From contig CAZSSZ010000001.1 in the NCBI GenBank assembly GCA_964609755.1, positions 1 through 43,474 of the forward strand: a stretch of 43,474 nucleotides of DNA, given 5' to 3'. Positions 5,760-24,545 of the stretch are shown here, piece after piece. The stretch comes from an uncultured Flavobacteriaceae bacterium (lineage in GTDB: Bacteria > Bacteroidota > Bacteroidia > Flavobacteriales > Flavobacteriaceae). The notes beneath the pieces are model-generated. The model was not told where the DNA came from. It did not search any database and was given only the letters and a program-made list of their open reading frames with translations. A program made the position numbers and the translations under genes. Position 1 is the first letter of the stretch; every line of letters starts with the position of its first letter.

Positions 5760-8700
5760 ATGATAAATATGAAAAACAAGGTTATAAAAGTACTCTTTTG
5801 CCTGCTGATGCTTCCGGCGTTTGCCCAAGTAGAGGTAGTGCAAAACAACAACGGCACCAAGCTCGTTGTTAATGGCGAGGATTTTTTCGTCAGTGGGATG
5901 AATTGGGACTATTTCCCAAGGGGTACCAACTATTCGTTTAGTCTTTGGAACCAGTCTGATGACTTTATCAAAGCAGCTCTCGATGCTGAAATGGGACTCC
6001 TAAAAAACATGGGCGTAAATACCATCAGAACTTATACGGGTATTCAGCCGCGCTGGATTCAGTATATCTATGAAAATTACGGGATATATACCATGCTTAA
6101 CCATTCTTTTGGGCGTTACGGACTAACACTCGACGGGGCGTGGGTTGCCGTTACCGATTATAGAAACCCAAAAGCACAAGAGCTTTTGATGGCAGAAGTA
6201 ACTGCCCTCGCACAGGAGTATAAAGACACCCCCGGATTGCTGTTGTTTTTGCTGGGTAACGAAAACAACTACGGTTTGTTTTGGGCAGGTGCCGAAACGG
6301 AAGACTTTCCTGACGAAGAAGACCAACGCCGCGAGGTGGGCGAAAAGCGTGGTAGACCCATGTATAAACTTATGAACGATGCCGCCAAAGCCATGAAGGC
6401 GATTGACGGTTCGCATCCGGTTGCCATCTGTAACGGGGACTTATTGTTCTTGGATATTATTGCACAAGAGTGTAAAGATGTAGATGTATACGGGACAAAT
6501 ATGTACCGCGGAATTTCGTTTGGCGACACCTTTGAGCGTGTCAAAAATGAGTATGGAAAACCGGTACTCTTTACCGAATTTGGTTCGGATGCCTTTAATG
6601 CGCTTTCCAACAAAGAAGACCAAAAAGCACAGGCCGAATACATGGTCGGGCAGTGGAAGGAAATTTATGCCAATGCTGCCGGATTAGGCAAAACAGGTAA
6701 TTCCTTAGGGGGATTCACCTTCCAATTTAGCGATGGCTGGTGGAAATACGGACAAACCGATAACTTAGAAGTTCACGACAACAACGCTTCATGGTCTAAT
6801 GGAGGCTACCAGTTTGATTACAAACTTGGACAAAACAACATGAATGAGGAGTGGTTTGGTATTTGCGCCAAAGGACCTTCAGATGCTCGTGGGTTATACG
6901 ATTTGTATCCCAGAGCTGCATACTATGCACTAAAACAAGCACACACACTAAATCCTTTTGCAGATAGTGTAGATGCTTCCTTTGTAGAAAATCACTTTGA
7001 CAACATTATGCTAATGGATGCGGTGCTTCGTGCCCGCGCGGATAAAGCCGCTCTTGGGGGAGGCGAAAAAGTTCGTTTGAGCAACCTTAGAGCAGAATTT
7101 ACTTCCTATAATACAGGAGGAACGTTGCTAACTACGCCTACCACACCTAACCCGGAAAGCAATACTTTTCCCGACCAGCTCGGCTTCGATCACATGCAGT
7201 CGTATTTTGTGGGGGTAGAGGGAAATCCTGCCCCGGGAATGCGCGCCGAGGTTAACGTAAATGTTTTGGGAAATGTTGCAACCAATCCTATTGATGAGAT
7301 TTTCTATGAAAATCGTGGGCGTGCACAACGCGTAAACACCCCCGATGGCGTGGTTACCCTAAACGATCCAAACAGAGTGCAGGTCTACAATGCCGAATTT
7401 GAGTGGAATGCCAAAAACTTCGATCTAAGAGGTTTTTACAGAACGGGGCATTATCACTGGGCGTATGAGGGTGATATCTTCAATTTGTATCCCGAAGCCT
7501 ATTATGGACCTAATCTAGACATCTATAACGGTGAAATTTTAGGTGCTGAACTTGACGCCAAAGGCGCACTTTCAGGGCTTAAGGCTGCTTTTGGTCCGCA
7601 ATTGTGGTGGGGTGCAAACCCAACCGTACTCCTAAAATATTCTAAAGACCTCTTTAAGTGGAAGGTAACAGGAATCTACCACAGAGACCTCAATACCAAT
7701 TTGGAATATGATGAAAGCGGTAGACGTATTTTGGATCAAAACCAACTTACTTCAGGGGTAATTCCGGCCTGGCCAACAGAACGTGCTACACTTGCGTTTG
7801 AAAGAACCTTTGGAAACGTTGGCATTACCCTTGGAGGAATTTGGGGCGGTAGCCCACTTAATGGAAGCGGGTTCCAAATGGTAGATAAAAACCTGCACGC
7901 GGTGTTGGTGGATAAAATCAACAGCGAGGATAACTGGGGCGCCAAAGCCAAAATCACTTATCAAAAAGGTAGATTTAACTGGTACGCACAAGGTTCCTAC
8001 ATGGGATTGGTTGCCAATGGTGGCGCAGACCAAACCAAAACCTTTACAGGGTGGAAACTTAAAGATTCAGGCAGTGGAAACATGACCAATGTCTTATCAG
8101 GATTCACGGTATTGACGGGCAATCTTCAAATTGCACCGAACTTTTTGTACCAAAAACCATTGGTTGACCCGATGCCAAACAATCCTTTTGGACCGGGAAG
8201 ACTGCGTAACGTCATTGACGACCCATTTGCAGTTCGTGGTGGAAACAGAGAAACCCTAGGTGGAGAAATCCTTTTCACGTTTGACCCAACTCCAGGCACT
8301 TGGATGTATGAGTGGAACAACGACATGATGGAGGATGCAAAATTTGCTATGAGTGCTGGCTTTGTGTTTAGACACTTGCCCACTACGCAAGATGCGCACA
8401 TTGGGTTTATGGCAAACCGTCAATTCTTTGCCTTTGGCCAAAGTACTCCTGCAGAAGACCTTTGGGAAGCACATGCCCGTATGGTGTCTAAGCTAAGCCC
8501 CGAATTGGGGATGATTGGAAATTTCTATTATGGAAATGGACAAGGTAATGGCGATTCAGACCGTACCATTACTCGTTTTGGAGGCGATATCAGAATGATT
8601 TATAAAAACATGAAAATGATTTCGCATGTTAAAGTTAACGACTGGGGTCCATTTGACTACCACCGTGACTTTAACCTTACGTTCCCATTACAGCTAATGC

Positions 8701-8924
8701 TAGACCTGTCTACTTCGCTTGGGAAGCAAAACTGGTTTGGTTTACCCAACACGCAAATTGGTATTCGTGGTACGTGGAGATCATACAATGAGCATAGCGG
8801 CAACAGATATGCGCCTATGGAAACTGCTGAATTTGCGAAAACGCCTATCATCAGTCCGGTTGGATTTCCAAATGGAACGGAATGGGAAATCAGAACATAC
8901 GTTCATATAAATATTGGCAAATAA
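5760..8924 (+). CDS. Secreted two-part protein: N-terminal clan GH-A (beta/alpha)8 glycosidase-like domain plus a ~650-aa beta-rich, outer-membrane-barrel-like C-terminal region
   Basis: It has an SPI-type signal peptide (..LLMLPAFA-QVE). The N-terminal ~400 aa carry a GH-A pattern: NTIRTY, LLGNENNY (Glu168, nt 6261-6263) and LFTEFGSDAF (Glu273, nt 6576-6578), about 105 residues apart. The remainder is Gly/aromatic-rich with many amphipathic alternating strands (AKAKITYQKGRFNWYAQGSY, GGEILFTFDP, FAMSAGFVFRHL, GGDIRMIYKNMKMISHVKVND, TEWEIRTYVHINIGK). The exact CAZy family was not determined; GH158 or GH5-like are possible. Confidence 0.6.
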   Translation: MINMKNKVIKVLFCLLMLPAFAQVEVVQNNNGTKLVVNGEDFFVSGMNWDYFPRGTNYSFSLWNQSDDFIKAALDAEMGLLKNMGVNTIRTYTGIQPRWIQYIYENYGIYTMLNHSFGRYGLTLDGAWVAVTDYRNPKAQELLMAEVTALAQEYKDTPGLLLFLLGNENNYGLFWAGAETEDFPDEEDQRREVGEKRGRPMYKLMNDAAKAMKAIDGSHPVAICNGDLLFLDIIAQECKDVDVYGTNMYRGISFGDTFERVKNEYGKPVLFTEFGSDAFNALSNKEDQKAQAEYMVGQWKEIYANAAGLGKTGNSLGGFTFQFSDGWWKYGQTDNLEVHDNNASWSNGGYQFDYKLGQNNMNEEWFGICAKGPSDARGLYDLYPRAAYYALKQAHTLNPFADSVDASFVENHFDNIMLMDAVLRARADKAALGGGEKVRLSNLRAEFTSYNTGGTLLTTPTTPNPESNTFPDQLGFDHMQSYFVGVEGNPAPGMRAEVNVNVLGNVATNPIDEIFYENRGRAQRVNTPDGVVTLNDPNRVQVYNAEFEWNAKNFDLRGFYRTGHYHWAYEGDIFNLYPEAYYGPNLDIYNGEILGAELDAKGALSGLKAAFGPQLWWGANPTVLLKYSKDLFKWKVTGIYHRDLNTNLEYDESGRRILDQNQLTSGVIPAWPTERATLAFERTFGNVGITLGGIWGGSPLNGSGFQMVDKNLHAVLVDKINSEDNWGAKAKITYQKGRFNWYAQGSYMGLVANGGADQTKTFTGWKLKDSGSGNMTNVLSGFTVLTGNLQIAPNFLYQKPLVDPMPNNPFGPGRLRNVIDDPFAVRGGNRETLGGEILFTFDPTPGTWMYEWNNDMMEDAKFAMSAGFVFRHLPTTQDAHIGFMANRQFFAFGQSTPAEDLWEAHARMVSKLSPELGMIGNFYYGNGQGNGDSDRTITRFGGDIRMIYKNMKMISHVKVNDWGPFDYHRDFNLTFPLQLMLDLSTSLGKQNWFGLPNTQIGIRGTWRSYNEHSGNRYAPMETAEFAKTPIISPVGFPNGTEWEIRTYVHINIGK
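6960..8921 (+). other. C-terminal beta-rich region of the 1054-aa protein (putative large beta-barrel), approximate boundaries
   Basis: Dyad-repeat hydrophobicity is seen in about 10-residue segments separated by short Gly/Asn/Asp turns. The region is rich in Tyr/Trp/Phe and Gly, and no catalytic motifs were recognised. Against a classical barrel, the last residue is Lys rather than an aromatic residue. Confidence 0.4.
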
Positions 8925-8938
8925 TAAATTAGGAAAAA

Positions 8939-10354
8939 ATGAAAAAATTTAAGTTTACATCAACGTTCACTCTAGCCGTTTTGGGCTTGGCTGCCGCAGT
9001 TGCGGTTAGCTGTGAACGCGGGTTTTCGGATGAAATTGCCTTGGCAACCTATCCTACAACCCCTGAAGTTTTTACAGATATTCCGGTAGGTCTTACAGAC
9101 GAATTTTTTGTGTCGTTTGACCCTGCCGATGGTGCCAATGTATATGGCTTTGGTACTGACGATAACGAAGCATACAAAGGAACTTCATCTATTCGCATTG
9201 AAGTCCCCGCACCCAACGACCCCAATGGGGGCTTTATTGGGGGGATTTTTCTCGATCGTGGAAATGGTAGAAATCTAACCGAATATGATGCTTTGACCTT
9301 TTGGGCAAAAGCCTCTAAGACAGGTACTGCTGGCTTGTTTGGTTTTGGCACCGATTTCCAAGGAGACAAATACGCTGCGGGAATTAGCGACATTACCCTT
9401 TCTACTGATTGGAAACAATATGTTATTCCCATTCCTGACCCTTCAAAACTGACCCAAGTAAAGGGAATGTTTGCCTTTTCGGCAGGAACGCAAGGAACAA
9501 ACGGTTTAGGCTTTACCATTTGGTTGGATGAAATTAAGTTTGAAAAATTGGGCACCATTGCGCAAGGAAGACCCGCCATTTTTGGTGGAGAGGACCTTAC
9601 GAAAACTGGTTTTATTGACGGTACTTTTGACGTAACAGGCACCCAAACACTAAACCATGCCGGCACGGATATCACTGTGAATGCTGCTTCGGGCTATTTT
9701 GATTTTGCATCATCAGAACTTACGGTAGCCCAAGTCAACGATCAGGGTAAAGTTACTGTTGTCAATAAAGGTGATGCCAAAATCACGGCTTCAATAGCTG
9801 GCGTTACCGCAAAAGGCTCATTGACGATTAATTCTTTGGGGAGGTTTAGTTTGCCCCCTGCTCCAACACATGAGGCAGCAAATGTAAAGTCGATTTTTAG
9901 TGATGCATATGAAAACGTTCCGATTGAATTCTATAACGGCTATTGGCAACCGTATCAAACTACTACTTCTGCGGATTTTGATGTCAATGGGGATAATATT
10001 CTCTCCTATGAAAACTTCAATTTTGTAGGGCATCAGTTTGGACAGCCAACAGTCGACGCCAGTGCCATGACGCACTTGCACCTTGATGTGTATGTACCAG
10101 GCACCTTAGATCCTGGAGCACAACTTAAAGTTACTATCAAAGACTTTGGCGCAGATGGTGTAGACAGTGCAGCAGATGACACTACGCAATCCTATACCAT
10201 TAATGCTTCGGATTTGGCAGCTGATGCTTGGAGCAGTATTGATATTCCATTGTCTTTATCTCCGCGTTCTAAGGTTGGACAACTTATCTATGAAAACAAT
10301 CAGACCAATCTGAAAAGTTTGCACATGGATAATGTCTTTTTCTACAAACAATAA
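8939..10354 (+). CDS. Multi-module surface glycan-binding lipoprotein (CBM-like, Big_2-like Ig domain, CBM-like)
   Basis: It has a lipoprotein signal (..AAAVAVSC-E). The N-terminal module is beta-sandwich-like (YDALTFWAKAS..WKQYVIPIP..IWLDEIKFEK). The central segment looks like bacterial Ig group 2 (VAQVNDQGKVTVVNKGDAKITASIAGVTAKGSLTI). The C-terminal module is also CBM-like (THLHLDVYVPG..VTIKDFG..WSSIDIPLS..MDNVFFYK). Confidence 0.65.
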   Translation: MKKFKFTSTFTLAVLGLAAAVAVSCERGFSDEIALATYPTTPEVFTDIPVGLTDEFFVSFDPADGANVYGFGTDDNEAYKGTSSIRIEVPAPNDPNGGFIGGIFLDRGNGRNLTEYDALTFWAKASKTGTAGLFGFGTDFQGDKYAAGISDITLSTDWKQYVIPIPDPSKLTQVKGMFAFSAGTQGTNGLGFTIWLDEIKFEKLGTIAQGRPAIFGGEDLTKTGFIDGTFDVTGTQTLNHAGTDITVNAASGYFDFASSELTVAQVNDQGKVTVVNKGDAKITASIAGVTAKGSLTINSLGRFSLPPAPTHEAANVKSIFSDAYENVPIEFYNGYWQPYQTTTSADFDVNGDNILSYENFNFVGHQFGQPTVDASAMTHLHLDVYVPGTLDPGAQLKVTIKDFGADGVDSAADDTTQSYTINASDLAADAWSSIDIPLSLSPRSKVGQLIYENNQTNLKSLHMDNVFFYKQ

Positions 10355-10369
10355 GCTAAAACCAACAAA

Positions 10370-11209
10370 ATGAATTTTAGAAAACATACATCTAAAGCCT
10401 TGCAAATGCTATCCCTTTTAGGGGTGGCTTTTGCTGTGGGTACATTTACAATAAGCTGCAACCCCGACGACACCCAAGTGGTGGCAAAATTCGACATCAT
10501 TACGATGCAAGACGAATTTGATATCGAAGGAGCACCCAACGATAAAATTTGGGGCTACGACATTGGTACGGGTACCAACGGTTGGGGTAACAACGAGCTG
10601 CAACATTACACGGACCGCTCCTCTAACGTTGAGGTAAAAGACGGGATGTTAAAAATCACTGCAGTTAAGGAAGCCTATGAAGGTGCTGCCTACACTTCAG
10701 CACGATTGCTGACCAAAGGAAAATTTGACCAAAAATACGGGCGTTTTGAGGCGCGTATCAAATTGCCTTGGGGACAAGGCATGTGGCCCGCATTTTGGCT
10801 TCTTGGCGCTGATTTTGACACGGCAGGCTGGCCCCATTGTGGCGAAATTGATATCATGGAAAACCGTGGGGCAGAACCTACTACAGTTAGCGGTACGGTG
10901 CATGGTCCTGGGTATTCAGCAGGAAATTCAGTTGGTAAGGAATTTTCACTTACCAGCGATCGTTTTGACACTGGGTTTCACATTTTTGGTATTGAGTGGG
11001 GCGAAGATTATATCAACTACTACGTAGATGATGTGTTGTACAATCAAATTACCCCTGCGGATGTTAATGGCGAATGGGTTTTTGACCAACCGTTTTTTAT
11101 TATCATCAACTTAGCTGTTGGAGGTAACTTTGGTGGTCCTCCAAACGACGCTACGGTTTTCCCTCAAGAAATGCTTGTTGATTACGTAAGAGTTTACGCT
11201 GCTGAATAA
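10370..11209 (+). CDS. GH16 endo-beta-1,3-glucanase (laminarinase) lipoprotein
   Basis: It has a lipoprotein signal (..GTFTISC-N). The GH16 catalytic motif is present (GEIDIME, ExDxxE type), together with NNELQHYT, WPAFWLLG and the LVDYVRVY tail. Confidence 0.9.
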   Translation: MNFRKHTSKALQMLSLLGVAFAVGTFTISCNPDDTQVVAKFDIITMQDEFDIEGAPNDKIWGYDIGTGTNGWGNNELQHYTDRSSNVEVKDGMLKITAVKEAYEGAAYTSARLLTKGKFDQKYGRFEARIKLPWGQGMWPAFWLLGADFDTAGWPHCGEIDIMENRGAEPTTVSGTVHGPGYSAGNSVGKEFSLTSDRFDTGFHIFGIEWGEDYINYYVDDVLYNQITPADVNGEWVFDQPFFIIINLAVGGNFGGPPNDATVFPQEMLVDYVRVYAAE

Positions 11210-11211
11210 CA

Positions 11212-12339
11212 ATGAAAATCACGTTTACACCTTTATTGTTTATTCTTTTGCTCATCGGTTGTGAGAAAGAAACCGTTTCCACAACCGATGACAAAAAACC
11301 TAGTGCACCTACCGAACTTTCGCTTGATATTACGCTTCAAGGTCAAGCAGCTAACCCTCATGGGGATGGCTCTGGCGTAGCCAATTTTAAAGCAACGGCT
11401 ACTGGCGCTTCTAGGTTTGATTTTAGAATTGATGAAGGCGTAGCCATGGAAAGTGGCAACGGCGAACTCGTACACGAATTTACCAAAGAAGGCACGCATA
11501 CCTATACCGTTACGGCTATTGCGTACTCAGACGAGAATCTTGCAGATTCTATTGCTAAAAACGTTCGTGTTCGTGTGGCACCACCTTCCAAATATGGGAT
11601 GACCCTTGTGTGGGCAGATGAGTTTGATTATGAAGGGGCTGTTGACGTTAACAAATGGCACCATCAAGTGATACCAATTGCAGGTAACAATTGGGCAAAT
11701 AATGAAGAGCAGCATTATACCGACAGAACTGATAATTCGTATGTGAGCGATGGCACTTTGAAAATTGTTGCCAAAAAAGAAAACTATCAGTTTAGAGGTA
11801 TTACCAAAAATTACACCTCGGCACGACTGAATTCCAAATACATATTCAAATATGGTCGTGTAGATATCAGTGCAAAACTTCCCGCTGCGGGAGGCACTTG
11901 GCCTGCTTTATGGACCTTGGGTGCGAACATAGATGAAATAGGAAACTATCATGGCAATACCTACGGAAGCGTTGGTTGGCCTAGCTGTGGTGAGATCGAT
12001 ATCATGGAACAGAACGGCTGGGACAAAAACCATCTGATTGGGCATTTGCATTGGGGCGACACCCAAACAGGAGCCTATGAAAACAAAGGTGGAACAAAGG
12101 TTGTGTCGAACACCACAACGACTTTTAACCTGTATTCGCTGATATGGAACGAAAACGAAATCAAAATTTTGTTTAACGACGAAGTGGTGTATGAAACCGA
12201 AAACACGAGTGCAATGCCCTATGATAATCCACATTATTTGTTGTTTAATATCGCTATGGGCGGTACCCTTGGCGGGGCTATCCCTAACGATTTTACGCAA
12301 GCCGTAATGGAGGTGGATTATATCCAAATTTATCAATAA
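11212..12339 (+). CDS. PKD-like domain plus GH16 endo-beta-1,3-glucanase lipoprotein
   Basis: It has a lipoprotein signal (..LLLIGC-E) and an N-terminal PKD-like segment (..EGTHTYTVTAIAY). The GH16 domain shows NNEEQHYT, WPALWTLG, GEIDIMEQ and MEVDYIQIY. It starts 2 nt after the previous GH16 gene. Confidence 0.88.
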   Translation: MKITFTPLLFILLLIGCEKETVSTTDDKKPSAPTELSLDITLQGQAANPHGDGSGVANFKATATGASRFDFRIDEGVAMESGNGELVHEFTKEGTHTYTVTAIAYSDENLADSIAKNVRVRVAPPSKYGMTLVWADEFDYEGAVDVNKWHHQVIPIAGNNWANNEEQHYTDRTDNSYVSDGTLKIVAKKENYQFRGITKNYTSARLNSKYIFKYGRVDISAKLPAAGGTWPALWTLGANIDEIGNYHGNTYGSVGWPSCGEIDIMEQNGWDKNHLIGHLHWGDTQTGAYENKGGTKVVSNTTTTFNLYSLIWNENEIKILFNDEVVYETENTSAMPYDNPHYLLFNIAMGGTLGGAIPNDFTQAVMEVDYIQIYQ

Positions 12340-12367
12340 CCAAATCGTAAAATGTGTATCTCCTCTT

Positions 12368-15300
12368 ATGTTATTAGATGAAAAAAATATCAGCTGCCTA
12401 AGGCAGGAAAAAGAAATACTAAACGAAACAATTGAAATGACACAAGACGACGCGATTTATATTGGCGCGAATCCCACGCAATTTTCAACTAAAGAAGTAA
12501 AAGGCGAGGAAATAACCCGAAACGGACAAACCTTTTACAAAATTTCAAATGCAGACTGCATGCGTCCGTTTTTTATGAGTATTGTTAGCAATTCCGACCA
12601 TTGGATGTTTATATCAAGTAATGGAAGTTTGTCTGCGGGAAGAAAAAATAGCGACTACGCTCTTTTCCCATACTACACGGATGATAAAATCACGGAGGCT
12701 GCCGAAACTACAGGAAGTAAAAGTATTTTTATTGTAACCAAATCGGGTAAAAAGCACTTGTGGGAGCCCTTTTCCGTAAGGCAAAATGGCATGTACCATA
12801 CCACCCGAAATTTGTACAAAAATACCTACGGAAACAAAATTGTTTTTGAAGAAATCAACCACGACTTAGCCCTTACGTTTACCTACGAATGGAACTCTAG
12901 CGAAAAATTTGGGTTTGTTCGCAAGGCGTGTATTTCCAACAACGGAGCCGAGCGCATTTCAGTTAATGTCTTGGATGGCATCCAAAATATCTTGCCCTAC
13001 GGCGTTGAGCCGGCATTGCAAAGTGCAAGCAGTAACCTTGTAGACGCCTATAAAAAGTGCGAATTGGAAGAAGATTCAGGCGTTGGAATTTATTCGTTGA
13101 GTGCCATTATTGTAGACAAAGCCGAGCCGAGCGAGGCACTTAAAGCCAATGTGGTGTGGTCCCTCGGGCTTGACAATGCTAAAAAACTTATTTCTTCTTT
13201 GCAATTGGATGATTTCCGCAGGGGTCATGGCGTAATGCAAGAGGTAGACATCCGTGCGGAAAAAGGCGCATACTTTTTAAACGATGAAATTACCTTACAG
13301 CCAGATGCTTCAGAAAGTTGGATGTTGGTTGCGAATGTAAATCAAACCATGTCGGACATTGTTCAAATCAAGGAAAAATTGCAAAACCATACGGCTTTGC
13401 AAGAGACTATTTTAGCAGATATTGAAGCAGGGTCTGATCATTTGGTGGCGTTGGTTGCCGCCGCCGACGGACTGCAAATGACCAACGACCGTCTTCGCAA
13501 CATTCGTCACTTTGCCAACACCATGTTCAACATTATGCGAGGTGGTATTTTTGATGACAACTACCACATTGAAAAAGCAGATTTTACGACTTATATCGCC
13601 AATGCAAATCGAAAAGTATATCGCTTAAAAGAAGCTATTTTAGCAGCACTTCCTGAGGTTTTTGACGTTAAACATCTTAAAGAAATTGCCGCAAAGGATG
13701 ACAACCCAAACTTTAAACGCTTGTGTTTTGAGTACTTGCCATTAAAGTTTAGCCGACGTCACGGTGACCCAAGCCGTCCGTGGAACAAATTCTCCATCAA
13801 CACCCGAAATGAAGAGGGGGGAAAAATCTTAGACTACGAGGGAAACTGGCGTGATATTTTCCAAAACTGGGAAGCCTTGGCACACTCCTATCCAGAGTTT
13901 ATTGAGGGGATGATTCACAAGTTTTTAAACGCTACTACTTTCGATGGCTACAACCCGTATCGGGTAACCAAAGGTGGTTTTGATTGGGAAACCATAGAGC
14001 CAGACAACCCGTGGTCGTATATTGGCTATTGGGGCGATCATCAAATCATCTACCTACTTAAATTCTTGGAGTTTATTGAGGATCATTATCCCAATACACT
14101 TGCTGATTATTTCAATCAAGATTTGTTTGTGTATGCCAACGTGCCTTACCGCATCAAGAGTTACGAGCAAATTTTAAAAGATCCAAAAAACACCATTGAT
14201 TTTGATTTTGAGCGCGAAGAAAACATTCACTTTAAGCGTGAGGAAATCGGAGTAGACGGAGCCTTGCTTCGCGACAATACTGTATTTATTTACAAGGTAA
14301 ATTTCATAGAGAAAATCTTGGCTACAGTACTGGCAAAAATGTCAAACTTTATCCCCGAGGGCGGTATTTGGATGAACACCCAACGCCCCGAATGGAACGA
14401 TGCCAACAACGCGCTTGTAGGCAACGGTGTTTCTATGGTAACCCTGTATTACTTACGTCGTTTTTTACGTTTCTTCGAAACGGTTGTTGATAAATCCGAT
14501 TGGAATAATATCCATATTTCTAAGGAGCTACGCGCGTTTTTTATGCGTGTTACTACGGCTTTGGAACAACACAAAGAACTTCTTGGATCAAGCATTTCGG
14601 ATGTCGATAAAAAGCGCATTATGGATGCTTTGGGCAAAGCAGGAAGCGATTACCGAAACACAATTTACGACAAGCGTTTTTCGGGTGACAAAGAGGAAAT
14701 TTCGAAAGATGATTTAGTGTCATTTTTGGAGGTGTCACGTGCCTTTTTGGAGCATTCTATTGAGGCAAACAAACGTGAAGATAAGCTGTATCACGCCTAC
14801 AATTTGATGACAATCAATAACGACAATTCTGTTCGCATTTCACATTTACCCGAAATGTTAGAAGGTCAAGTGGCAGTACTTAGTTCCGGCTATTTGTCTG
14901 CCAAAGAAAACCTAGAAGTGCTTGATGGACTAAAAGCAAGCGCACTGTTTAGACCTGACCAATACAGCTATGTATTATATCCGAACAAGGAACTTCCGCG
15001 TTTTGTCAACAAAAACACTATTCCGAAAGAAAAAGTGGAAACATCACCTCTGCTAAAAAAACTCATTGCCGATGGCAATACACAAGTGCTTTCTAAAGAT
15101 GCAAAAGGGGAATACCACTTTAACGGGAACTTCAATAATGTGGACAGCTTGCGCGAAGCCTTGCAAAATCTTCCGGAGCAGTACCGCGCTTTAGCAACAG
15201 ATGAAACCGCTTATTTGGAGCAGGTTTTTGAAGCTATTTTCGACCACAAATCCTTTACGGGTCGCTCGGGTACTTTCTTCGGATATGAAGGATTAGGCTC

Positions 15301-15898
15301 TATTTACTGGCACATGGTGTCTAAGCTGCTTTTGGCGGTTTACGAAATTACACGTGATGCCATTGCTGCAAAGGAAGATCCCGTGCTGATTGGAAACTTA
15401 TTTGACCATTATTTTGAAATTAATGCTGGAATTGGTGCACACAAATCACCTAAACTGTACGGGGCATTCCCAACAGATCCATATTCACATACCCCTGGCG
15501 GAAAAGGCGCACAGCAGCCTGGAATGACTGGACAGGTAAAAGAAGATATCTTAAGCCGATTCGGAGAATTGGGTATTCGCATTTCAAATGGCGTACTTGG
15601 GTTTGACCCTACCATTTTGCGCAGTGAAGAATTTTTGACCGAACCACAAACATTTAATTATGTCAGCGTTACCGGAGAAAAAACTGCTATTGCACTAGAA
15701 AAAGACACCTTGGCATTCACGTATTGTCAGGTGCCTATTATTTACAAAAAATCAAAAACGGAAGGTATTGAGGTCGTGCTTCAATCGGGAGAAGTACAAA
15801 CATTTCCCGAGAACACATTGGATGTATCCCTTAGTACTGCCCTCTTTCAAAGGAGTAACGCCATTTACAAAATCACTGTTTCTGTTTTGAAAGAATAA
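12368..15898 (+). CDS. Signal-less GH94/GH149-like beta-1,3-glucan (laminari-oligosaccharide) phosphorylase
   Basis: The 1176-aa protein has no signal peptide. It carries a GH94-clan-like catalytic-Asp motif, RPEWNDANNAL (Asp678, nt 14399-14401), and phosphate-site-like segments (RRHGDPSRPWNKF; HTPGGKGAQQPGMTGQ). Size and a beta-1,3-glucan PUL context fit the described GH149 family. An alternative start at Met24 (MTQDD..) is possible. Confidence 0.6.
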   Translation: MLLDEKNISCLRQEKEILNETIEMTQDDAIYIGANPTQFSTKEVKGEEITRNGQTFYKISNADCMRPFFMSIVSNSDHWMFISSNGSLSAGRKNSDYALFPYYTDDKITEAAETTGSKSIFIVTKSGKKHLWEPFSVRQNGMYHTTRNLYKNTYGNKIVFEEINHDLALTFTYEWNSSEKFGFVRKACISNNGAERISVNVLDGIQNILPYGVEPALQSASSNLVDAYKKCELEEDSGVGIYSLSAIIVDKAEPSEALKANVVWSLGLDNAKKLISSLQLDDFRRGHGVMQEVDIRAEKGAYFLNDEITLQPDASESWMLVANVNQTMSDIVQIKEKLQNHTALQETILADIEAGSDHLVALVAAADGLQMTNDRLRNIRHFANTMFNIMRGGIFDDNYHIEKADFTTYIANANRKVYRLKEAILAALPEVFDVKHLKEIAAKDDNPNFKRLCFEYLPLKFSRRHGDPSRPWNKFSINTRNEEGGKILDYEGNWRDIFQNWEALAHSYPEFIEGMIHKFLNATTFDGYNPYRVTKGGFDWETIEPDNPWSYIGYWGDHQIIYLLKFLEFIEDHYPNTLADYFNQDLFVYANVPYRIKSYEQILKDPKNTIDFDFEREENIHFKREEIGVDGALLRDNTVFIYKVNFIEKILATVLAKMSNFIPEGGIWMNTQRPEWNDANNALVGNGVSMVTLYYLRRFLRFFETVVDKSDWNNIHISKELRAFFMRVTTALEQHKELLGSSISDVDKKRIMDALGKAGSDYRNTIYDKRFSGDKEEISKDDLVSFLEVSRAFLEHSIEANKREDKLYHAYNLMTINNDNSVRISHLPEMLEGQVAVLSSGYLSAKENLEVLDGLKASALFRPDQYSYVLYPNKELPRFVNKNTIPKEKVETSPLLKKLIADGNTQVLSKDAKGEYHFNGNFNNVDSLREALQNLPEQYRALATDETAYLEQVFEAIFDHKSFTGRSGTFFGYEGLGSIYWHMVSKLLLAVYEITRDAIAAKEDPVLIGNLFDHYFEINAGIGAHKSPKLYGAFPTDPYSHTPGGKGAQQPGMTGQVKEDILSRFGELGIRISNGVLGFDPTILRSEEFLTEPQTFNYVSVTGEKTAIALEKDTLAFTYCQVPIIYKKSKTEGIEVVLQSGEVQTFPENTLDVSLSTALFQRSNAIYKITVSVLKE

Positions 15899-15944
15899 CA
15901 TTTAACTATTAAAATCATCTGCGGATATTGATTTCCCATAAGGT

Positions 15945-17219
15945 ATGAGCACTATGAAAATTTTCGGAAAGTTTGGATTTTTCACAGTAGCGCTTTGGGT
16001 TTTGGTATCCTGTAACACACAGCATTTGAGTATGAAAAGTAAAACAGCAGCAGAAATTCTAGGAAATCCGGACTACACGGCAATTTCCTATGGCGGATAT
16101 CGCACTACATTACGTGAGAATCAACCCACTATTGCGGAATTAAAAGATGACATGAAAATTCTTCACGCTATGGGGATTCGTATTATCAGAACCTATAATG
16201 TGCATCTGCCACAGGCAGAAAACATACTCAAGGCTATTTCGGAACTCAAAAAAGAGGATTCGGATTTTGAGATGTATGTGATGCTGGGCGCGTGGATAGA
16301 TTGTCTTAACGCATGGACTGAAAAAGTGGTAAATCACAACGTGGAAAGCCCTCGTAACGAAGAAGAAATCGCGAAGGCCGTTGCACTTGCCAATCAGTAC
16401 CCTGACATTGTGAAAGTACTTGCGGTGGGTAACGAAGCCATGGTAAAATGGGCGACAAGCTATTATGTGCAGCCTAGTGTTATTTTAAAATGGGTGAATC
16501 ACTTGCAAGACCTTAAAAAGAAGAACAAACTCCCAAAAGACGTGTGGATTACCAGCTCTGATAATTTCGCTTCGTGGGGCGGTGGAGACACCGCTTATCA
16601 CAATACCGATTTGGAGGCCTTAATTGCAGCAGTCGACTACATTTCTGTGCACACTTATCCCTTTCATGATACGCACTACAATCCCGGTTTTTGGGAAATT
16701 ACAGCTGAAAATGCAGTCAACAAAACCCAGCGAGAACTTATCGAGGAAGCCATGTTGCGGGCTCGGGACTATGCGATTTCGCAATTCAATAGCGTTAAAA
16801 AGTACATGCAAGATTTGGGGGTAGACAAACCCATTCACATTGGCGAAACAGGCTGGGCTACGGTTTCAAACGGCTACTACGGAAGAAAAGGATCCCATGC
16901 GGCAGACCAATACAAACAAGCGTTGTATTATAAGCGTATTGGCGAGTGGGCAAAGGAAAATAAGGTTGCCTGTTTTTATTTTGAAGCCTTTGATGAGCCT
17001 TGGAAAGAAGCGCATAACCCCAAAGGTTCTGAAAATCATTTTGGACTTTTCACCGTAGATGGCAAAGCAAAATATGCCCTTTGGGATTTGGTTAATAAGG
17101 GTGTTTTTAAGGGATTAACTCGAAACGGAAAACCCATTGGAAAAACCTTTAAGGGGAATAGCAAAAACCTCTATATCTCTGTGTTGCCCCCAAACATTTT
17201 AGAACCCAACATGAACTGA
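15945..17219 (+). CDS. GH17-like (clan GH-A) beta-1,3-glucanase lipoprotein
   Basis: It has a lipoprotein signal (..WVLVSC-N). TIM-barrel GH17-type motifs are present: IRIIRTYN, LAVGNEAMVKW (acid/base region), IHIGETGWAT (nucleophile region) and FYFEAFDEPWK. Confidence 0.7.
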   Translation: MSTMKIFGKFGFFTVALWVLVSCNTQHLSMKSKTAAEILGNPDYTAISYGGYRTTLRENQPTIAELKDDMKILHAMGIRIIRTYNVHLPQAENILKAISELKKEDSDFEMYVMLGAWIDCLNAWTEKVVNHNVESPRNEEEIAKAVALANQYPDIVKVLAVGNEAMVKWATSYYVQPSVILKWVNHLQDLKKKNKLPKDVWITSSDNFASWGGGDTAYHNTDLEALIAAVDYISVHTYPFHDTHYNPGFWEITAENAVNKTQRELIEEAMLRARDYAISQFNSVKKYMQDLGVDKPIHIGETGWATVSNGYYGRKGSHAADQYKQALYYKRIGEWAKENKVACFYFEAFDEPWKEAHNPKGSENHFGLFTVDGKAKYALWDLVNKGVFKGLTRNGKPIGKTFKGNSKNLYISVLPPNILEPNMN

Positions 17220-17221
17220 CC

Positions 17222-18706
17222 ATGAAAAATGCAGCAATATTAATCGGACTAATTCTTGTAATGATGAGCACTTCTTGTATGCAAAACCCTTTAGAAGTCG
17301 CCGTATATGAAACTTCAGAAAGCGGAAACAAACTTACACTACGCACCGATTTTCAAGCTACAGAAAACACTTCGCTTATCACACTTGACGTCTCAAAAGA
17401 ATATCAGACCATTACGGGGTTTGGAGGTGCTTTTACAGAGTCTTCGGCTTTCCTGCTCAATCAGCTAAGTAAAGAAAACAGAGACCGCATTTTAAAGGCG
17501 TATTTTTCAAAAGAAGGCGCACGCTATTCGCTCACGCGAACCCATATGAACTCGTGTGATTTTTCGCTCAACAACTATTCTTACACGCCTGTTCCTGGAG
17601 ATAAAAATTTAGAGCATTTTTCGATTGAGGAGGACAAAGAAGATTTAATTCCCATGATAAAAGATGCCATGGCAATCTCTGAGGATGGCTTCAAGTTGTT
17701 TGCTTCGCCTTGGACAGCAGCTCCGTGGATGAAAGACAACAACAAATGGGTAGGCGGAAAACTGCTCCCCGAATATTACGATACTTGGGCATTGTTTTTT
17801 TCAAAGTATGTTGATGCCTACAAAGCCGAGGGAATTGACATTTGGGGATTTACCGTAGAAAATGAGCCCCACGGAAACGGTGAAAATTGGGAGAGTATGC
17901 ATTACTCACCCGAAGAAATGACGCATTTTGTTCAGCATTTTCTAGGACCAAAATTGGAAGCTGATGGCAAAGGAGACCTTGTTATTTTGGGCTACGATCA
18001 AAACCGCGAAGGCATTCGCGAGTGGGTAGATGTGATGTATAAAGATGAAGCTTCATCTAAATATTACGACGGTACCGCCGTGCATTGGTATGAAAGTACC
18101 TACGATTATTTTCCCACAGAATTGCAATATGCCCACGAAAAGGCTCCAGATAAATACTTAATTCAAACCGAAGCCTGCGTAGATGCTGAAGTTCCTGTGT
18201 GGCAAGACGATAAATGGTACTGGAAAAAAGAAGCCACGGATTGGGGCTACGATTGGCGCGAGCCAGCAAAGAAGTATTTGCACCCAAAGTATGCGCCTGC
18301 TAATCGCTACGCAAGAGATATTATTGGATGTCTCAACAACTGGGTTGATGGCTGGGTAGACTGGAATATGGTATTAGATACTAAAGGCGGTCCCAATTGG
18401 GCAAACAATTGGTGCATTGCCCCTGTAATTGTTGACCCCGAAAAAGACGAAGTGTATTTCACGCCCTTGTACTACATCATGGCACACTTTAGCAAATTCA
18501 TTCGTCCAGGGGCTGTAATTATTGACGCGCAAAATACAGACGATGACCTTATGGTTGCTGCTGTCAAAAACCCCGATGAGACTATTGCAGTAGTAGTATT
18601 TAACGAAGGAAAAACCATAAAACACTTTGCATTAAACCTTAAAGACACATCGAAAAAAATTACCATTAGCCCACAGGCAATACAAACCATTATGATAAAC
18701 AACTAA
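17222..18706 (+). CDS. GH30 glycosidase lipoprotein (glucosylceramidase-like, probable beta-1,6-glucosidase)
   Basis: It has a lipoprotein signal (..MMSTSC-M). GH30 hallmarks are present: ITGFGGAFTES, SPWTAPPWMK-like (SPWTAAPWMKDN), FTVENEPHG (acid/base) and IQTEACV (nucleophile). It starts 2 nt after the previous gene. Confidence 0.85.
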   Translation: MKNAAILIGLILVMMSTSCMQNPLEVAVYETSESGNKLTLRTDFQATENTSLITLDVSKEYQTITGFGGAFTESSAFLLNQLSKENRDRILKAYFSKEGARYSLTRTHMNSCDFSLNNYSYTPVPGDKNLEHFSIEEDKEDLIPMIKDAMAISEDGFKLFASPWTAAPWMKDNNKWVGGKLLPEYYDTWALFFSKYVDAYKAEGIDIWGFTVENEPHGNGENWESMHYSPEEMTHFVQHFLGPKLEADGKGDLVILGYDQNREGIREWVDVMYKDEASSKYYDGTAVHWYESTYDYFPTELQYAHEKAPDKYLIQTEACVDAEVPVWQDDKWYWKKEATDWGYDWREPAKKYLHPKYAPANRYARDIIGCLNNWVDGWVDWNMVLDTKGGPNWANNWCIAPVIVDPEKDEVYFTPLYYIMAHFSKFIRPGAVIIDAQNTDDDLMVAAVKNPDETIAVVVFNEGKTIKHFALNLKDTSKKITISPQAIQTIMINN

Positions 18707-18716
18707 ATCAATACCC

Positions 18717-21065
18717 ATGAAAGCTCAACCCTTATCATCTCATAAAGTACCTATTACTCAAAAAATAGCCTTTGGCGTGGGAATGTTTGCAAATCAAATG
18801 TTCCCTGCAATTTTGGGAATCTTTATGGTTGTTTTGGTTCAAGACTTAGGTTTTCCCGGATGGATGTGGTCACTTATCTATTTTTTCCCAAGAATATTTG
18901 ACTCCATCACCGATCCTATTATGGGATTTATCTCAGATAACACAAAATCAAAATGGGGACGTCGTAGGCAATATGTTTTGATTGGAAGCATTATAATGGG
19001 AGTTGCTTACATATTTATGTGGCAGCTCTTTAAGGAAAACTCGTTGCAATTCAATTTCTGGTATTTCTTTTTATGGTCCCTTGTTTTTTATTTAGGGCTA
19101 ACCTTTTTTAGTGTGCCTTATGTAGCCATGGGGTATGAGATGAGTGAAGATTTTCATGAGCGTACCAATATTATGGCAATTGCGCAGTGGATTGGACAAT
19201 GGGCTTGGGTAATTGCGCCATGGTTTTGGGTGATTATGTATGACCCCGAATGGTTCCCATCTGCTGAAGTTGCGGTACGAGAATTGGCTATTTGGGTTGC
19301 CATTCCATGTGCGATTTGCGCTATGGTTCCGGCCATATTTATTGAGAGTAAATCTACTCTTAATGAAAATTATGAGCCTTTGAATGGGGCTAATATTGGC
19401 AATAGCCTTAAAAAGATTTATCACAGTTTTGTTGAGGCGTTTAAAATCAAAGAATTTAGAAAATTATGTGGCGCTACGTTTTTAATTTTTAATGCGTTCA
19501 ACACTGTTGCTGCGCTCACGTTTTTTGTCATTGTTTACAAGCTCTTTAACGGAGACGCTGGAGCTAGTGGCATCTGGGTATCTCTTTTTGGTTGTTTAGG
19601 GGCCTTGGGAACCACATTTATTGTTATCCCAATTGTTACGTGGATGTCTAAGATTTTTGGAAAAAAGAAGGCATTTTTACTTGCTCAGGGAATCTCGGTA
19701 TTGGGCTACATAATGCTTTGGTTTTTGTTCGTTCCTGGAAAACCTTGGATGTACATTATTGCCCTCCCATTCTTTTCGTTTGGAATTGGAAGTTTATTTA
19801 CCATTATGATGTCTATGACTGCAGATGTCATTGATATTGATGAATTAAATTCAGGGAAACGAAGGGAAGGAATTTTTGGTGCTATATATTGGTGGATGGT
19901 CAAAGTAGGCTTTGCCATAGCTGGTGCCTTGAGTGGTGTTATCATTGCTCTTGTAGGCTTCAACCCCGACTTAACCACCGTGGAACAACAATCCGCTGTT
20001 GATGGGTTACACGCATTTTTCTGTTTCTTCCCCTTAGCAGGAACACTAATAGCCATGTGGATTATGCGTGACTATAGTATAGACGAAACTCGAGCAAATG
20101 AAATTAGAGCGCAATTAAAAGCGCAAAAAGGAACGCCAAAGCCCCTTTCGTATCAGCAAATGCAAGGGAAACTCGCTAACCTAACAGGCAAAACTTTTAC
20201 TTCTAGACTGCGTTCCGATGTTGATTTCTCAGGGCATACAATATCAAAACAAAAAGCGTTATTTGACAACGCCCTTAGCAAGGGGTTGCATGGCATTTGC
20301 TTTAGTCCATATCGCGAACACCAAAGTGTAGAAGACACCTTATCTGAAAGCCAAATTAAGGAACGTATGGAAGTGGTTGCTCCTTATGCGAACTGGGTGC
20401 GTTCGTTTTCTTGTACAGGCGGGAATGAGCATATTCCCGCGGTTGCCAAATCAAAGCATCTAAAAACTATGGTTGGCGCATGGATTGGGCAGGACAAAGA
20501 AGAAAATGATAAGGAAATAAAGGCGCTTATTGATCTAGCGAAAAAGGGATTGGTAGATATTGCAGTAGTAGGTAACGAGGTCTTGATGCGTGACGATTTG
20601 AGCGAACAGCATATTCTTGACTACTTGGCAGAAGTAAAACAAGCTATTCCCGGAATAAAAGTTGGCTATGTAGACGCATACTACCAGTTTATTCAGCGTC
20701 CAAAACTAGTTGAAGCTTGTGATGTAATTCTTATTAATTGCTATCCGTTTTGGGAAGGCAGTAATATTGAATTCGCCACATCGAATTTGAAAGAAATGTA
20801 CCAAGCAACTCAAAATATAGCCAACGGCAAGCCAGTTATTATTACAGAAACAGGTTGGCCAAATCAGGGAGATCGCGTTGGTGAAGCAAAGCCATCACCT
20901 CAAAATGCGATGGAATATTTTGTCAATGTCACTACTTGGGCAGCATTAGAAAAAGCACCAATATTCTACTTTTCTTCTTTTGATGAGTCTTGGAAATTAC
21001 ATCATGAAGGAGATGTTGGCGCACGATGGGGAATATGGGATAAATACGAAAAACGTAAATACTAA
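18717..21065 (+). CDS. Fusion protein: GPH/MFS-family glycoside:cation symporter (aa ~1-455) plus C-terminal GH17 domain (aa ~505-782)
   Basis: The reading frame is uninterrupted. The N-terminal part has about 12 hydrophobic segments and the GPH signature FDSITDPIMGFISDNTKSKWGRRRQ. The C-terminal part has GH17 motifs VVGNEVL and IITETGWP and is closely paralogous to the next gene. Confidence 0.85.
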   Translation: MKAQPLSSHKVPITQKIAFGVGMFANQMFPAILGIFMVVLVQDLGFPGWMWSLIYFFPRIFDSITDPIMGFISDNTKSKWGRRRQYVLIGSIIMGVAYIFMWQLFKENSLQFNFWYFFLWSLVFYLGLTFFSVPYVAMGYEMSEDFHERTNIMAIAQWIGQWAWVIAPWFWVIMYDPEWFPSAEVAVRELAIWVAIPCAICAMVPAIFIESKSTLNENYEPLNGANIGNSLKKIYHSFVEAFKIKEFRKLCGATFLIFNAFNTVAALTFFVIVYKLFNGDAGASGIWVSLFGCLGALGTTFIVIPIVTWMSKIFGKKKAFLLAQGISVLGYIMLWFLFVPGKPWMYIIALPFFSFGIGSLFTIMMSMTADVIDIDELNSGKRREGIFGAIYWWMVKVGFAIAGALSGVIIALVGFNPDLTTVEQQSAVDGLHAFFCFFPLAGTLIAMWIMRDYSIDETRANEIRAQLKAQKGTPKPLSYQQMQGKLANLTGKTFTSRLRSDVDFSGHTISKQKALFDNALSKGLHGICFSPYREHQSVEDTLSESQIKERMEVVAPYANWVRSFSCTGGNEHIPAVAKSKHLKTMVGAWIGQDKEENDKEIKALIDLAKKGLVDIAVVGNEVLMRDDLSEQHILDYLAEVKQAIPGIKVGYVDAYYQFIQRPKLVEACDVILINCYPFWEGSNIEFATSNLKEMYQATQNIANGKPVIITETGWPNQGDRVGEAKPSPQNAMEYFVNVTTWAALEKAPIFYFSSFDESWKLHHEGDVGARWGIWDKYEKRKY
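20229..21062 (+). other. GH17 catalytic domain portion of the transporter fusion (approximate boundaries)
   Basis: The region LHGICFSPY..WVRSFSC..GNEHIP..KTMVGAW..VVGNEVL..GYVDAYY..NCYPFWEG..IITETGWP..FYFSSFDESWK aligns collinearly with the 303-aa GH17 encoded at 21071-21982. Confidence 0.8.
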
Positions 21066-21070
21066 TAAAA

Positions 21071-21982
21071 ATGTCATACAGAGAAGGTATAGAATTTAGC
21101 TTAGAAGAATTAGAATACAAATCGTATCAAGGCGTAAATTTTGATAATTATACAACCGAGGACTTAAAAGCGCTCTGGAGAAAAACACTCAAGTTGGGAA
21201 TGCATGGAATTTGTTTTAGCATGTATGAAGACGGGCAAGAGCCTGGAGATACAATAACGGTGGCTCAAGTGGAACGCCGTATCAAAATACTCAAACCCTT
21301 CACCAAATGGGTACGCTCTTTTTCATGTATTGAGGGCAATGAACACATTCCGCGCATTGCAAAAAAACATGGTATTAAAACGATGGTTGGTGCTTGGCTT
21401 GGCGATGACCCTGAAAAAAACGAAGAAGAAATAAAGGCATTAATTGCCCTTGCTAACGAAGGCTGTGTGGATATTGCTGCCGTGGGCAATGAGGTGCTTT
21501 ATCGCAACGATTTAACCCTAGAGGAATTGCTCGCATTTATGAAACAAGTTAGAGATGCAATTCCAGCCCATATTCCTATTGGATATGTAGATGCGTATTA
21601 CGAGTTTTCTTCACACCCCGAACTCGTAGAGCATTCAGACGTAATTTTATCCAATTGCTATCCGTTTTGGGAGGGTTGTCCGGAAGAATGGGCGCTAAAC
21701 CATATGCAAAGTATGTATGGGCAAGCCATGCACGCTGCAAAAGGTAAAAAAGTAATCATTACTGAAACGGGATGGCCCAGCAAAGGGGAGCCTCTCAAGG
21801 GTTCTGTGCCGTCCGAAGAACATGCTATGAAATACTTCATCAACACCCAAGCTTGGGCAAAACAGGCCAACATAGACGTGTTTTATTTTTCGTCTTTTGA
21901 TGAGTCTTGGAAAGTTGGTCCAGAAGGCGAAGTGGGTGCGTATTGGGGACTTTGGGATAAACATGAAAAACTCAAGTTTTAA
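21071..21982 (+). CDS. Signal-less (predicted cytoplasmic) GH17-family beta-1,3-glucanase/transglycosylase
   Basis: The 303-aa protein has no signal peptide. It carries the motifs AVGNEVL and IITETGWPSKG plus FYFSSFDESWK. It starts 5 nt after the fusion gene and is a paralogue of that gene's C-terminal domain. Confidence 0.85.
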   Translation: MSYREGIEFSLEELEYKSYQGVNFDNYTTEDLKALWRKTLKLGMHGICFSMYEDGQEPGDTITVAQVERRIKILKPFTKWVRSFSCIEGNEHIPRIAKKHGIKTMVGAWLGDDPEKNEEEIKALIALANEGCVDIAAVGNEVLYRNDLTLEELLAFMKQVRDAIPAHIPIGYVDAYYEFSSHPELVEHSDVILSNCYPFWEGCPEEWALNHMQSMYGQAMHAAKGKKVIITETGWPSKGEPLKGSVPSEEHAMKYFINTQAWAKQANIDVFYFSSFDESWKVGPEGEVGAYWGLWDKHEKLKF

Positions 21983-22010
21983 TTATAGCCATTAACACAA
22001 GGTATTCCCT

Positions 22011-24026: not shown

Positions 24027-24068
24027 ATTAGGCTTTTCTAACATGCGTATATAAACGTATCTTTGAAT

Positions 24069-24545
24069 ATGCGTTTGATTACTTTATGCAGTGTTGTAAT
24101 TCTTGTGTGTTGCTCACAACCCAAACAGGAAAACCTTATATCAAAGGTGGAGGATACTGCTGTGGTGGATTCAATTTTAAATTCAGTTCTTGCTAAATCA
24201 GCCCCAAGCACAGCGTCACTCAACTGGTCAAACTTGACTCAATTGATGAACTCGCTTGGCAACATCCCAACGGCACAACGCAGCATTACTATGAAAACCA
24301 TTAAGGATGAGTCCACAAAACTTCTTAGTGCCTCATGGCCCGAAGAATGGAACACGAATCCAATTCGCTCACGCTATATGGTGTTTGTTACCCACGCAAG
24401 TATTGCGGCTGACCAGCGTCTTAATGGGGATATTGCTGAACAACAAGCAAAGAGTATCCTCAAAATGAAAAGGAGTTGGAACATTTTTGTTTCACACATT
24501 CAGCCTGAAGAAACTTCAACAGTCCTTGAGACGACACTCCGATAG
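24069..24545 (+). CDS. Hypothetical small lipoprotein
   Basis: It is an ORF with a lipoprotein-like signal (MRLITLCSVVILVCC-SQ). The ATG at 24069 is preferred over the listed TTG at 24063. No family was recognised. Confidence 0.5.
   Translation: MRLITLCSVVILVCCSQPKQENLISKVEDTAVVDSILNSVLAKSAPSTASLNWSNLTQLMNSLGNIPTAQRSITMKTIKDESTKLLSASWPEEWNTNPIRSRYMVFVTHASIAADQRLNGDIAEQQAKSILKMKRSWNIFVSHIQPEETSTVLETTLR

Follow-up and report, generated by a model that had tools for sequence, protein, structure and literature searches.

We analysed a 43,474-nucleotide stretch of DNA from an uncultured Flavobacteriaceae bacterium (GenBank assembly GCA_964609755.1, contig CAZSSZ010000001.1; the whole stretch is called the window here), in which a set of glycan-utilisation genes runs from 2 to 24026, all on the + strand. 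Within this set lies a long open reading frame (ORF), 12368..15898 (+), which very probably encodes a cytoplasmic, inverting GH149 beta-1,3-glucan (laminaridextrin) phosphorylase, the last step of a 'variant 1' laminarin locus in a small-genome marine Flavobacteriales bacterium. The ORF is real and intact, running uninterrupted from an ATG at 12368 for 1176 residues with its stop codon included, and no second ORF of at least 100 residues occurs within 12368..15898 on either strand. A search of the whole window against Rfam at the gathering threshold gave no match. Domain borders and functional residues were mapped onto the product from its structurally characterised homologue Pro_7066 (PDB 6HQ6/6HQ8; PMC6771811) through a pairwise alignment to 6HQ6 rebuilt from HMMER output, and gave the following features.

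12368..15898, + strand: GH149 beta-1,3-glucan phosphorylase gene, longest ORF (reading frame, NF058639.1 and PDB match)
12437..12439, + strand: ATG of Met24, the more probable start, which would give 1153 residues (alignment and same-genus comparison)
12485..13348, + strand: N-terminal beta-sandwich domain, residues 40-327 (Pro_7066 borders via alignment)
13349..13462, + strand: helical linker, residues 328-365 (Pro_7066 borders via alignment)
13463..15571, + strand: (alpha/alpha)6 catalytic domain, which holds Dom 1 and Dom 2 (Pro_7066 borders via alignment)
13547..13729, + strand: GH149-specific insertion Dom 1, residues 394-454 (Pro_7066 alignment)
13850..13855, + strand: RD motif R495-D496 (R470/D471 of Pro_7066), predicted to recognise glucose-1-phosphate (Glc-1-P) in the -1 subsite (alignment, literature)
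14393..14401, + strand: WND catalytic loop W676-N677-D678, with D678 the predicted catalytic Asp (D653 of Pro_7066; alignment, literature)
14996..15250, + strand: GH149-specific insertion Dom 2, residues 877-961 (Pro_7066 alignment)
15311..15313, + strand: H982 (H959 of Pro_7066), predicted to recognise phosphate (alignment, literature)
15572..15892, + strand: jelly roll domain (Pro_7066 borders via alignment)

Profile and structure searches agreed on the family. The NCBIfam equivalog model NF058639.1 (GH149_beta_1_3, '1,3-beta-D-glucan phosphorylase, GH149 family') reached 1803 bits (curated cut-off 1150) and matched residues 41-1173 to positions 2-1133 of its 1134. Pro_7066, described as a 'bacterial beta-1,3-oligosaccharide phosphorylase', was alone among solved structures in matching strongly, at 1576 bits over residues 40-1175. 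The two proteins align colinearly with three small gaps and share 700 identities in 1134 aligned columns (61.7%). An earlier sequence-only reading had proposed a GH149-type phosphorylase here, labelled it 'GH94/GH149-like', and taken the lack of any significant GH149, GH94 or GH161 match as an outcome that would count against it. A significant match was clearly found, and the GH149 half of the label stands.

The GH94 half does not. No Pfam family matched the protein at E<=1, which is no evidence against GH149 because Pfam seemingly has no model for that family, and a PDB profile search built from 26 diverse GH149 sequences returned GH149 and GH161 chains only, with no GH94 structure at E<=10. 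We rejected membership of GH94 on these two results. GH161 was rejected as well, since its structure 9QQK matched in three short stretches only, scoring 43 bits in the single-sequence search and 72 bits in the profile search, where GH149 scored 1576 and 2010 bits. To both families the protein is related through the clan and no more closely, in line with the literature. GH161 (PapP; PDB 9QQK) belongs to the same clan, GH-Q, and has SR(R/K)HGD and N(W/F)RD blocks in common with the window protein, but similarity is patchy (E 1.3e-10 for the single sequence, 2e-19 for the profile), and at a length of about 1040 residues its members are unlikely to carry the two GH149-specific insertions; GH161 is also inactive on the disaccharide and requires a minimum degree of polymerisation (DP) of 3 (PMC6484121). 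The GH94 enzymes PsLBP and CgCBP share clan, fold and catalytic logic with GH149 according to the literature, but neither Pfam nor the PDB profile search detected the relationship in sequence, and PsLBP is specific for the disaccharide.

Because the alignment to 6HQ6 is colinear with small gaps only, both GH149-specific inserted domains appear to be present; it continues across residues 394-454 and 877-961 with one gap of 2 residues. In Pro_7066 the catalytic Asp is D653 in the W651-N652-D653 loop, W651 contacts Glc-1-P in the -1 subsite, R470/D471 make further contacts in the same subsite, and H959 recognises phosphate (PMC6771811); Table S3 of the GH149 family paper names the same active-site elements. 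The corresponding residues of the window protein lie in RPEWNDANNAL (residues 673-683), which the sequence-only reading had correctly picked out as the catalytic-Asp block and in which W676-N677-D678 aligns to the Pro_7066 loop, in EGNWRDIFQNW (R495/D496) and in GSIYWHM (H982). D678, N677, R495, D496 and H982 were invariant in all 120 database homologues and W676 in 119 of them, and all six were invariant in a wider set of 26 sequences reaching down to 58% identity.

Two further blocks, RRHGDPSRPWNKF (residues 463-475) and HTPGGKGAQQPGMTGQ (residues 1041-1056), had been proposed from the sequence as a phosphate site. Both are present in the translation and invariant or nearly so in the 120 homologues, but the residues named in the literature, R495/D496 and H982, lie outside both. 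The 'NMSRSAS' segment of C. gilvus cellobiose phosphorylase holds what we take to be a phosphate-binding Arg. Opposite this segment the published alignment (Fig. S9) places the SRRHGD block, whose SR(R/K)HGD form is common to the GH149 window protein and GH161.

The gene may start downstream of its first ATG. Residue 25 of the window protein is the alignment position of the native Met1 of Pro_7066, and homologues are mostly 1147-1163 residues long. Among 17 same-genus sequences, 7 have an ATG at the Met24 position (-17 relative to the profile start), 6 have the upstream ATG (-40), with a loosely conserved start M-[LF]-[LF]-x-E-x-N, and in 9 an in-frame stop makes the -40 start impossible. A-rich bases precede 12437, and pyrimidine-rich bases precede 12368. 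Because of the Pro_7066 alignment, the homologue lengths, the same-genus pattern of ATGs and stops, and the A-rich context, Met24 (12437) is the more probable start codon, and the upstream start, which may serve in this sub-clade, is the less probable one. Residues 1-23 form a polar, clade-specific N-terminal extension that may simply be untranslated.

Whichever start is taken, the protein has no signal peptide. The highest 10-residue Kyte-Doolittle mean in its first 40 residues was 0.32 (0.26 from Met24), compared with 2.45-3.63 in nine locus neighbours whose N-terminus has a hydrophobic signal segment (SusD, the PKD protein, the 1054-residue protein, the Big_2 protein, both GH16s, the 424-residue GH17, GH30 and GH3), and no membrane segment was predicted anywhere in the protein, in which the highest 19-residue window reached at most 1.34. 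This agrees with the sequence-only reading, which had noted an ORF without a signal peptide. Only one other soluble protein of the locus, the 303-residue GH17, also lacks one.

The genes around the phosphorylase are listed below.

2-2677, + strand: SusC-like TonB-dependent transporter, 5' truncated by the window edge (Pfam)
2683-4194, + strand: SusD-like protein (Pfam)
4220-5659, + strand: 479-residue PKD-like lipoprotein
5760-8924, + strand: 1054-residue secreted protein with a weak clan-A TIM-barrel match (Pfam)
8939-10354, + strand: 471-residue Big_2-containing lipoprotein
10370-11209 and 11212-12339, + strand: two GH16 lipoproteins directly upstream of GH149 (Pfam)
15945-17219, + strand: GH17-like lipoprotein of 424 residues with a signal peptide (Pfam)
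17222-18706, + strand: GH30 with a signal peptide (Pfam)
18717-21065, + strand: MFS(GPH)::GH17 fusion, likely the inner-membrane importer feeding the phosphorylase (Pfam; PMC6246565)
21071-21982, + strand: 303-residue GH17 without a signal peptide (Pfam)
22011-24026, + strand: GH3 beta-glucosidase with a lipoprotein-type signal (Pfam)

The array combines SusC/SusD with GH16, GH17, GH30 and GH149 on one strand, in synteny with characterised loci, and is by these features a canonical 'variant 1' laminarin utilisation locus of marine Flavobacteriia. The name was given to GH149-GH30-GH17 polysaccharide utilisation loci (PULs) that rank with the most highly expressed ones in blooms of the North Sea (PMC10108472), and the 2018 GH149 family paper had already mapped Bacteroidetes GH149 genes to PULs with GH3/GH30 and GH16/GH17. 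That the phosphorylase is embedded in a PUL, as predicted from the sequence, was confirmed by its GH16, GH17, GH30, GH3 and SusC/D neighbours. When 80 related loci were compared by tblastn, the order GH2-like, Big_2 protein, GH16, GH149, GH17, GH30, MFS::GH17, GH17 recurred in dozens of Flavobacteriaceae loci, including one from a genome of Formosa sp. Hel1_33_131 (locus L014). Spacers of 28-97 nt and 46 nt flank GH149. A scan of 10000-25000 for promoter and terminator consensus sequences gave 32 and 18 hits, compared with shuffled expectations of 31.9 and 15.9, and no operon boundaries could be read from it.

Among the closest known systems is the laminarin locus that Formosa sp. Hel1_33_131, or 'Formosa B', carries (PMC6246565, PMC10108472). 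It has the same gene neighbourhood and a GH149 of about 63% protein identity, whereas the window has an extra second GH16 and a terminal GH3 and its host is of a different genus with smaller genomes (1.0-1.8 Mb). The Formosa laminarin loci are specifically induced by laminarin, and the GH30, GH17A and MFS::GH17B were characterised, with GH149 noted as a member of the locus (PMC6246565). The order in the window of an MFS_2/GPH symporter with a C-terminal GH17 domain, followed by the free signal-less 303-residue GH17, is the FbGH17B arrangement of this strain and hence a known system. Separately, the GH149 span of L014 (10001-13471) showed one in-frame stop when the tblastn-matched region was translated straight through, which may lie in the N-terminal extension region or be an assembly error.

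Other features of the neighbourhood are set down as observations in their own right. In the 1054-residue protein only residues 73-301 match a known domain, weakly (Glyco_hydro_2_C, 1e-06), and the remaining ~750 residues matched neither Pfam nor NCBIfam; most related loci have the protein too, with 59-71% identity and a position a few genes upstream of GH149, and the literature labels it 'GH0', 'GH2' or 'HP'. Directly after GH3, a 160-residue protein (24063-24545) with a lipoprotein-like N-terminus and no Pfam match has a counterpart of 46% identity at the same position in another locus (L003). Flavobacteriia-type GH149 genes also occur in metagenome-assembled genomes (MAGs) filed as 'Legionellales' (L039, NZIM01000066.1), 'Comamonadaceae' (L022) and 'Burkholderiales' (L080). 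The GH149 of L039 is 79% identical to the window protein and stands in the same order of GH16b, GH149, GH17, GH30, MFS::GH17, GH17 and GH3, and L022 retains the core of GH149, GH17, GH30, MFS::GH17 and GH17. L039, at least, is probably a mis-binned contig.

GH149 is single-copy in the window's genome and was found in 20 of 24 species genomes of the same genus (all 1.0-1.8 Mb), the misses being mostly the least complete assemblies. Of 16 genomes that represent the order's other families, only 2 had the gene, and NF058639.1 had no match in 14 control genomes. A protein search gave at least 8000 scored candidates, all at E<=1e-10; among the matches listed, the nearest cluster was 83% identical, and the named homologues were nearly all 'hypothetical protein' entries from Flavobacteriaceae MAGs. 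Of the words sampled from the gene sequence, 40-98% were recovered in metagenomes of marine, estuary, lagoon and seawater origin, which come from about 10 studies. Traces of in-situ transcription were also seen: contigs from 4 marine metatranscriptome runs match the gene at 95-100%, including 12370-12598 and 15391-15668, and one contig (12145-12377) spans the GH16/GH149 junction with 1 mismatch, which is consistent with co-transcription. These contigs are too sparse to fix the transcription start or the start codon.

Homologous enzymes and loci suggest activity, direction, chain-length range and route of substrate delivery for the window protein. Pro_7066, like the window protein, comes from Flavobacteriia, lacks a targeting peptide and has the same domain set and WND, RD and His residues; the two differ at about 38% of positions, and the window protein would have a 23-residue N-terminal extension if the upstream ATG is used. 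In vitro, phosphorolysis by Pro_7066 is specific to beta-1,3-linked glucose substrates, and the enzyme accepts Glc to laminarihexaose with similar efficiency (PMC5827456). The GH149 beta-1,3-glucan phosphorylase EgP1 of Euglena gracilis, likened here through its published residues (D660, W658, R477/D478 and H960; Table S3), belongs to the same family, but is eukaryotic, has a predicted targeting peptide, prefers short acceptors and is 45% identical to Pro_7066.

By analogy, the GH16 lipoproteins would bind laminarin at the cell surface and cleave it, SusC/D would take it up, and GH30, the 424-residue GH17 and GH3 would debranch and shorten it in the periplasm. The resulting beta-1,3-oligosaccharides would cross the inner membrane via the MFS::GH17 fusion, whose GH17 domain may face the cytoplasm (a putative topology). 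There GH149 would use inorganic phosphate to strip glucose units from the non-reducing end, with Asp678 as the general acid, Arg495, Asp496 and Trp676 holding the glucosyl or Glc-1-P moiety, and His982 contacting phosphate; the products would be alpha-D-glucose-1-phosphate and a chain shorter by one unit. Compared with hydrolysis followed by glucokinase, one ATP would be saved per bond cleaved. The sequence-only reading had set the phosphorylase alongside GH3 and GH17 hydrolytic routes. The genes do share a locus, but not a compartment: GH16, the 424-residue GH17, GH30 and GH3 carry signal peptides and would therefore do their work ahead of transport across the inner membrane and not next to the phosphorylase, leaving only the 303-residue GH17 without one.

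An unlinked phosphohexomutase could turn Glc-1-P into Glc-6-P, or Glc-1-P could go straight into storage alpha-glucan or nucleotide sugars; a link from GH149-derived Glc-1-P to storage alpha-glucan has already been proposed (PMC11093988). Pfam scans found no PGM_PMM domain protein encoded in the window, bearing out the earlier remark that no phosphoglucomutase gene is linked. The assembly (1.56 Mb, 222 contigs) contains two PGM_PMM_I matches. One, a 584-residue ORF on contig C94 (L081 1324-3078), is a candidate alpha-D-phosphohexomutase at 141.7 bits for PGM_PMM_I and the only phosphoglucomutase-like possibility in the assembly; the other, a 472-residue ORF on C20, is probably GlmM. Searches for glgC and glgA in this 77%-complete genome gave sub-threshold matches only.

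We also considered a more elaborate arrangement, in which the phosphorylase would sit in an inner-membrane complex with the MFS::GH17 importer and the 303-residue GH17, the polar residues 1-23 would serve as a docking or regulatory tail, and oligosaccharides would be channelled to Glc-1-P and then to storage alpha-glucan. This is hypothetical, and we give it little credence.

Among competing explanations, the one that survives best, though improbable, is that a GH149-fold phosphorylase here has another physiological substrate: strictly laminaribiose, laminarin fragments with beta-1,6 branches, or a different beta-1,3-linked glycan. EgP1 and Pro_7066 do differ in chain-length preference at 45% identity (PMC5827456), Pro_7066 tolerates other beta-linked disaccharide acceptors (PMC6484121), and two of the eight residues of the Pro_7066 surface oligosaccharide-binding site are proline in the window protein. 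Against this stand the equivalog-level score, the invariant active-site residues, the synteny with the Formosa laminarin locus, and the enzyme families encoded nearby (GH16, GH17, GH30, GH3), all of which indicate laminarin. The surface site itself (Y841, Y993, E990, E994 and others) is a trait of Pro_7066, not a defining one of GH149. Four of its eight residues are identical here (K856, Y866, E1017, R1085), two are changed conservatively (Y993 to F1016, E990 to D1013) and two are lost (E838 to P863, E982 to P1005).

It is very unlikely that the enzyme works mainly in synthesis in vivo, using Glc-1-P to build or remodel a beta-1,3-glucan in the cytoplasm jointly with the GH17 proteins that face this compartment. 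The reaction is reversible, in vitro Pro_7066 builds chains as long as DP 11, and GH149 and the 303-residue GH17 are the sole soluble proteins of the locus that lack signal peptides; but the gene lies within a degradative, operon-like SusC/D array with short spacers and no terminator signal above chance, and homologous loci are induced by laminarin. The cytoplasm usually has phosphate in excess of Glc-1-P, a balance that favours phosphorolysis. Moreover, the storage polymer reported for such bacteria is an alpha-glucan and not a beta-glucan (PMC11093988). The probability that phosphorolytic activity has been lost, leaving a hydrolase or transglycosylase, is close to negligible, as His982 and the RD motif are intact and invariant and both GH149 members characterised in the cited literature are phosphorylases.

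Several points weigh against a cytoplasmic laminaridextrin phosphorylase, the explanation we prefer. The assignment leans on homology, and identity to the characterised Pro_7066, at 62%, falls short of near-identity. Judged by its residues, the partly kept surface site means that long chains could be handled differently than in Pro_7066. The genome is 77% complete, and its candidate mutase on C94 falls under every NCBIfam equivalog cut-off, the best being archaeal-type GlmM (177 compared with 439 bits). The metatranscriptome contigs are thin and direction-less and may reflect DNA carry-over. On the sequence comparisons, the gene is nonetheless best described as an ordinary, well-conserved cytoplasmic GH149 beta-1,3-glucan phosphorylase, an orthologue, itself uncharacterised, of an enzyme already known and in a type of locus also known.

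The system and the role of the GH149 family were first described in 2018, so the finding is not new, and it changes no existing concept. Its practical value lies in correct annotation, as close relatives are still labelled 'hypothetical protein', and in a further candidate for the biocatalytic synthesis of beta-1,3-glucan. Laminarin ranks among the largest ocean fluxes of fixed carbon, and GH149 phosphorolysis is the energy-saving last step from laminarin to Glc-1-P in bloom-associated Flavobacteriia. To the known GH149 enzymes the window contributes a further orthologue, from a marine lineage that is widely distributed and has small genomes. Genomes of this genus, at 1.0-1.8 Mb and with estimated completeness up to 95%, nevertheless keep a laminarin locus of ~24 kb, which suggests that its members are streamlined laminarin specialists. 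Retention of the gene in 20 of the 24 species genomes supports the enzyme as core equipment of such specialists.

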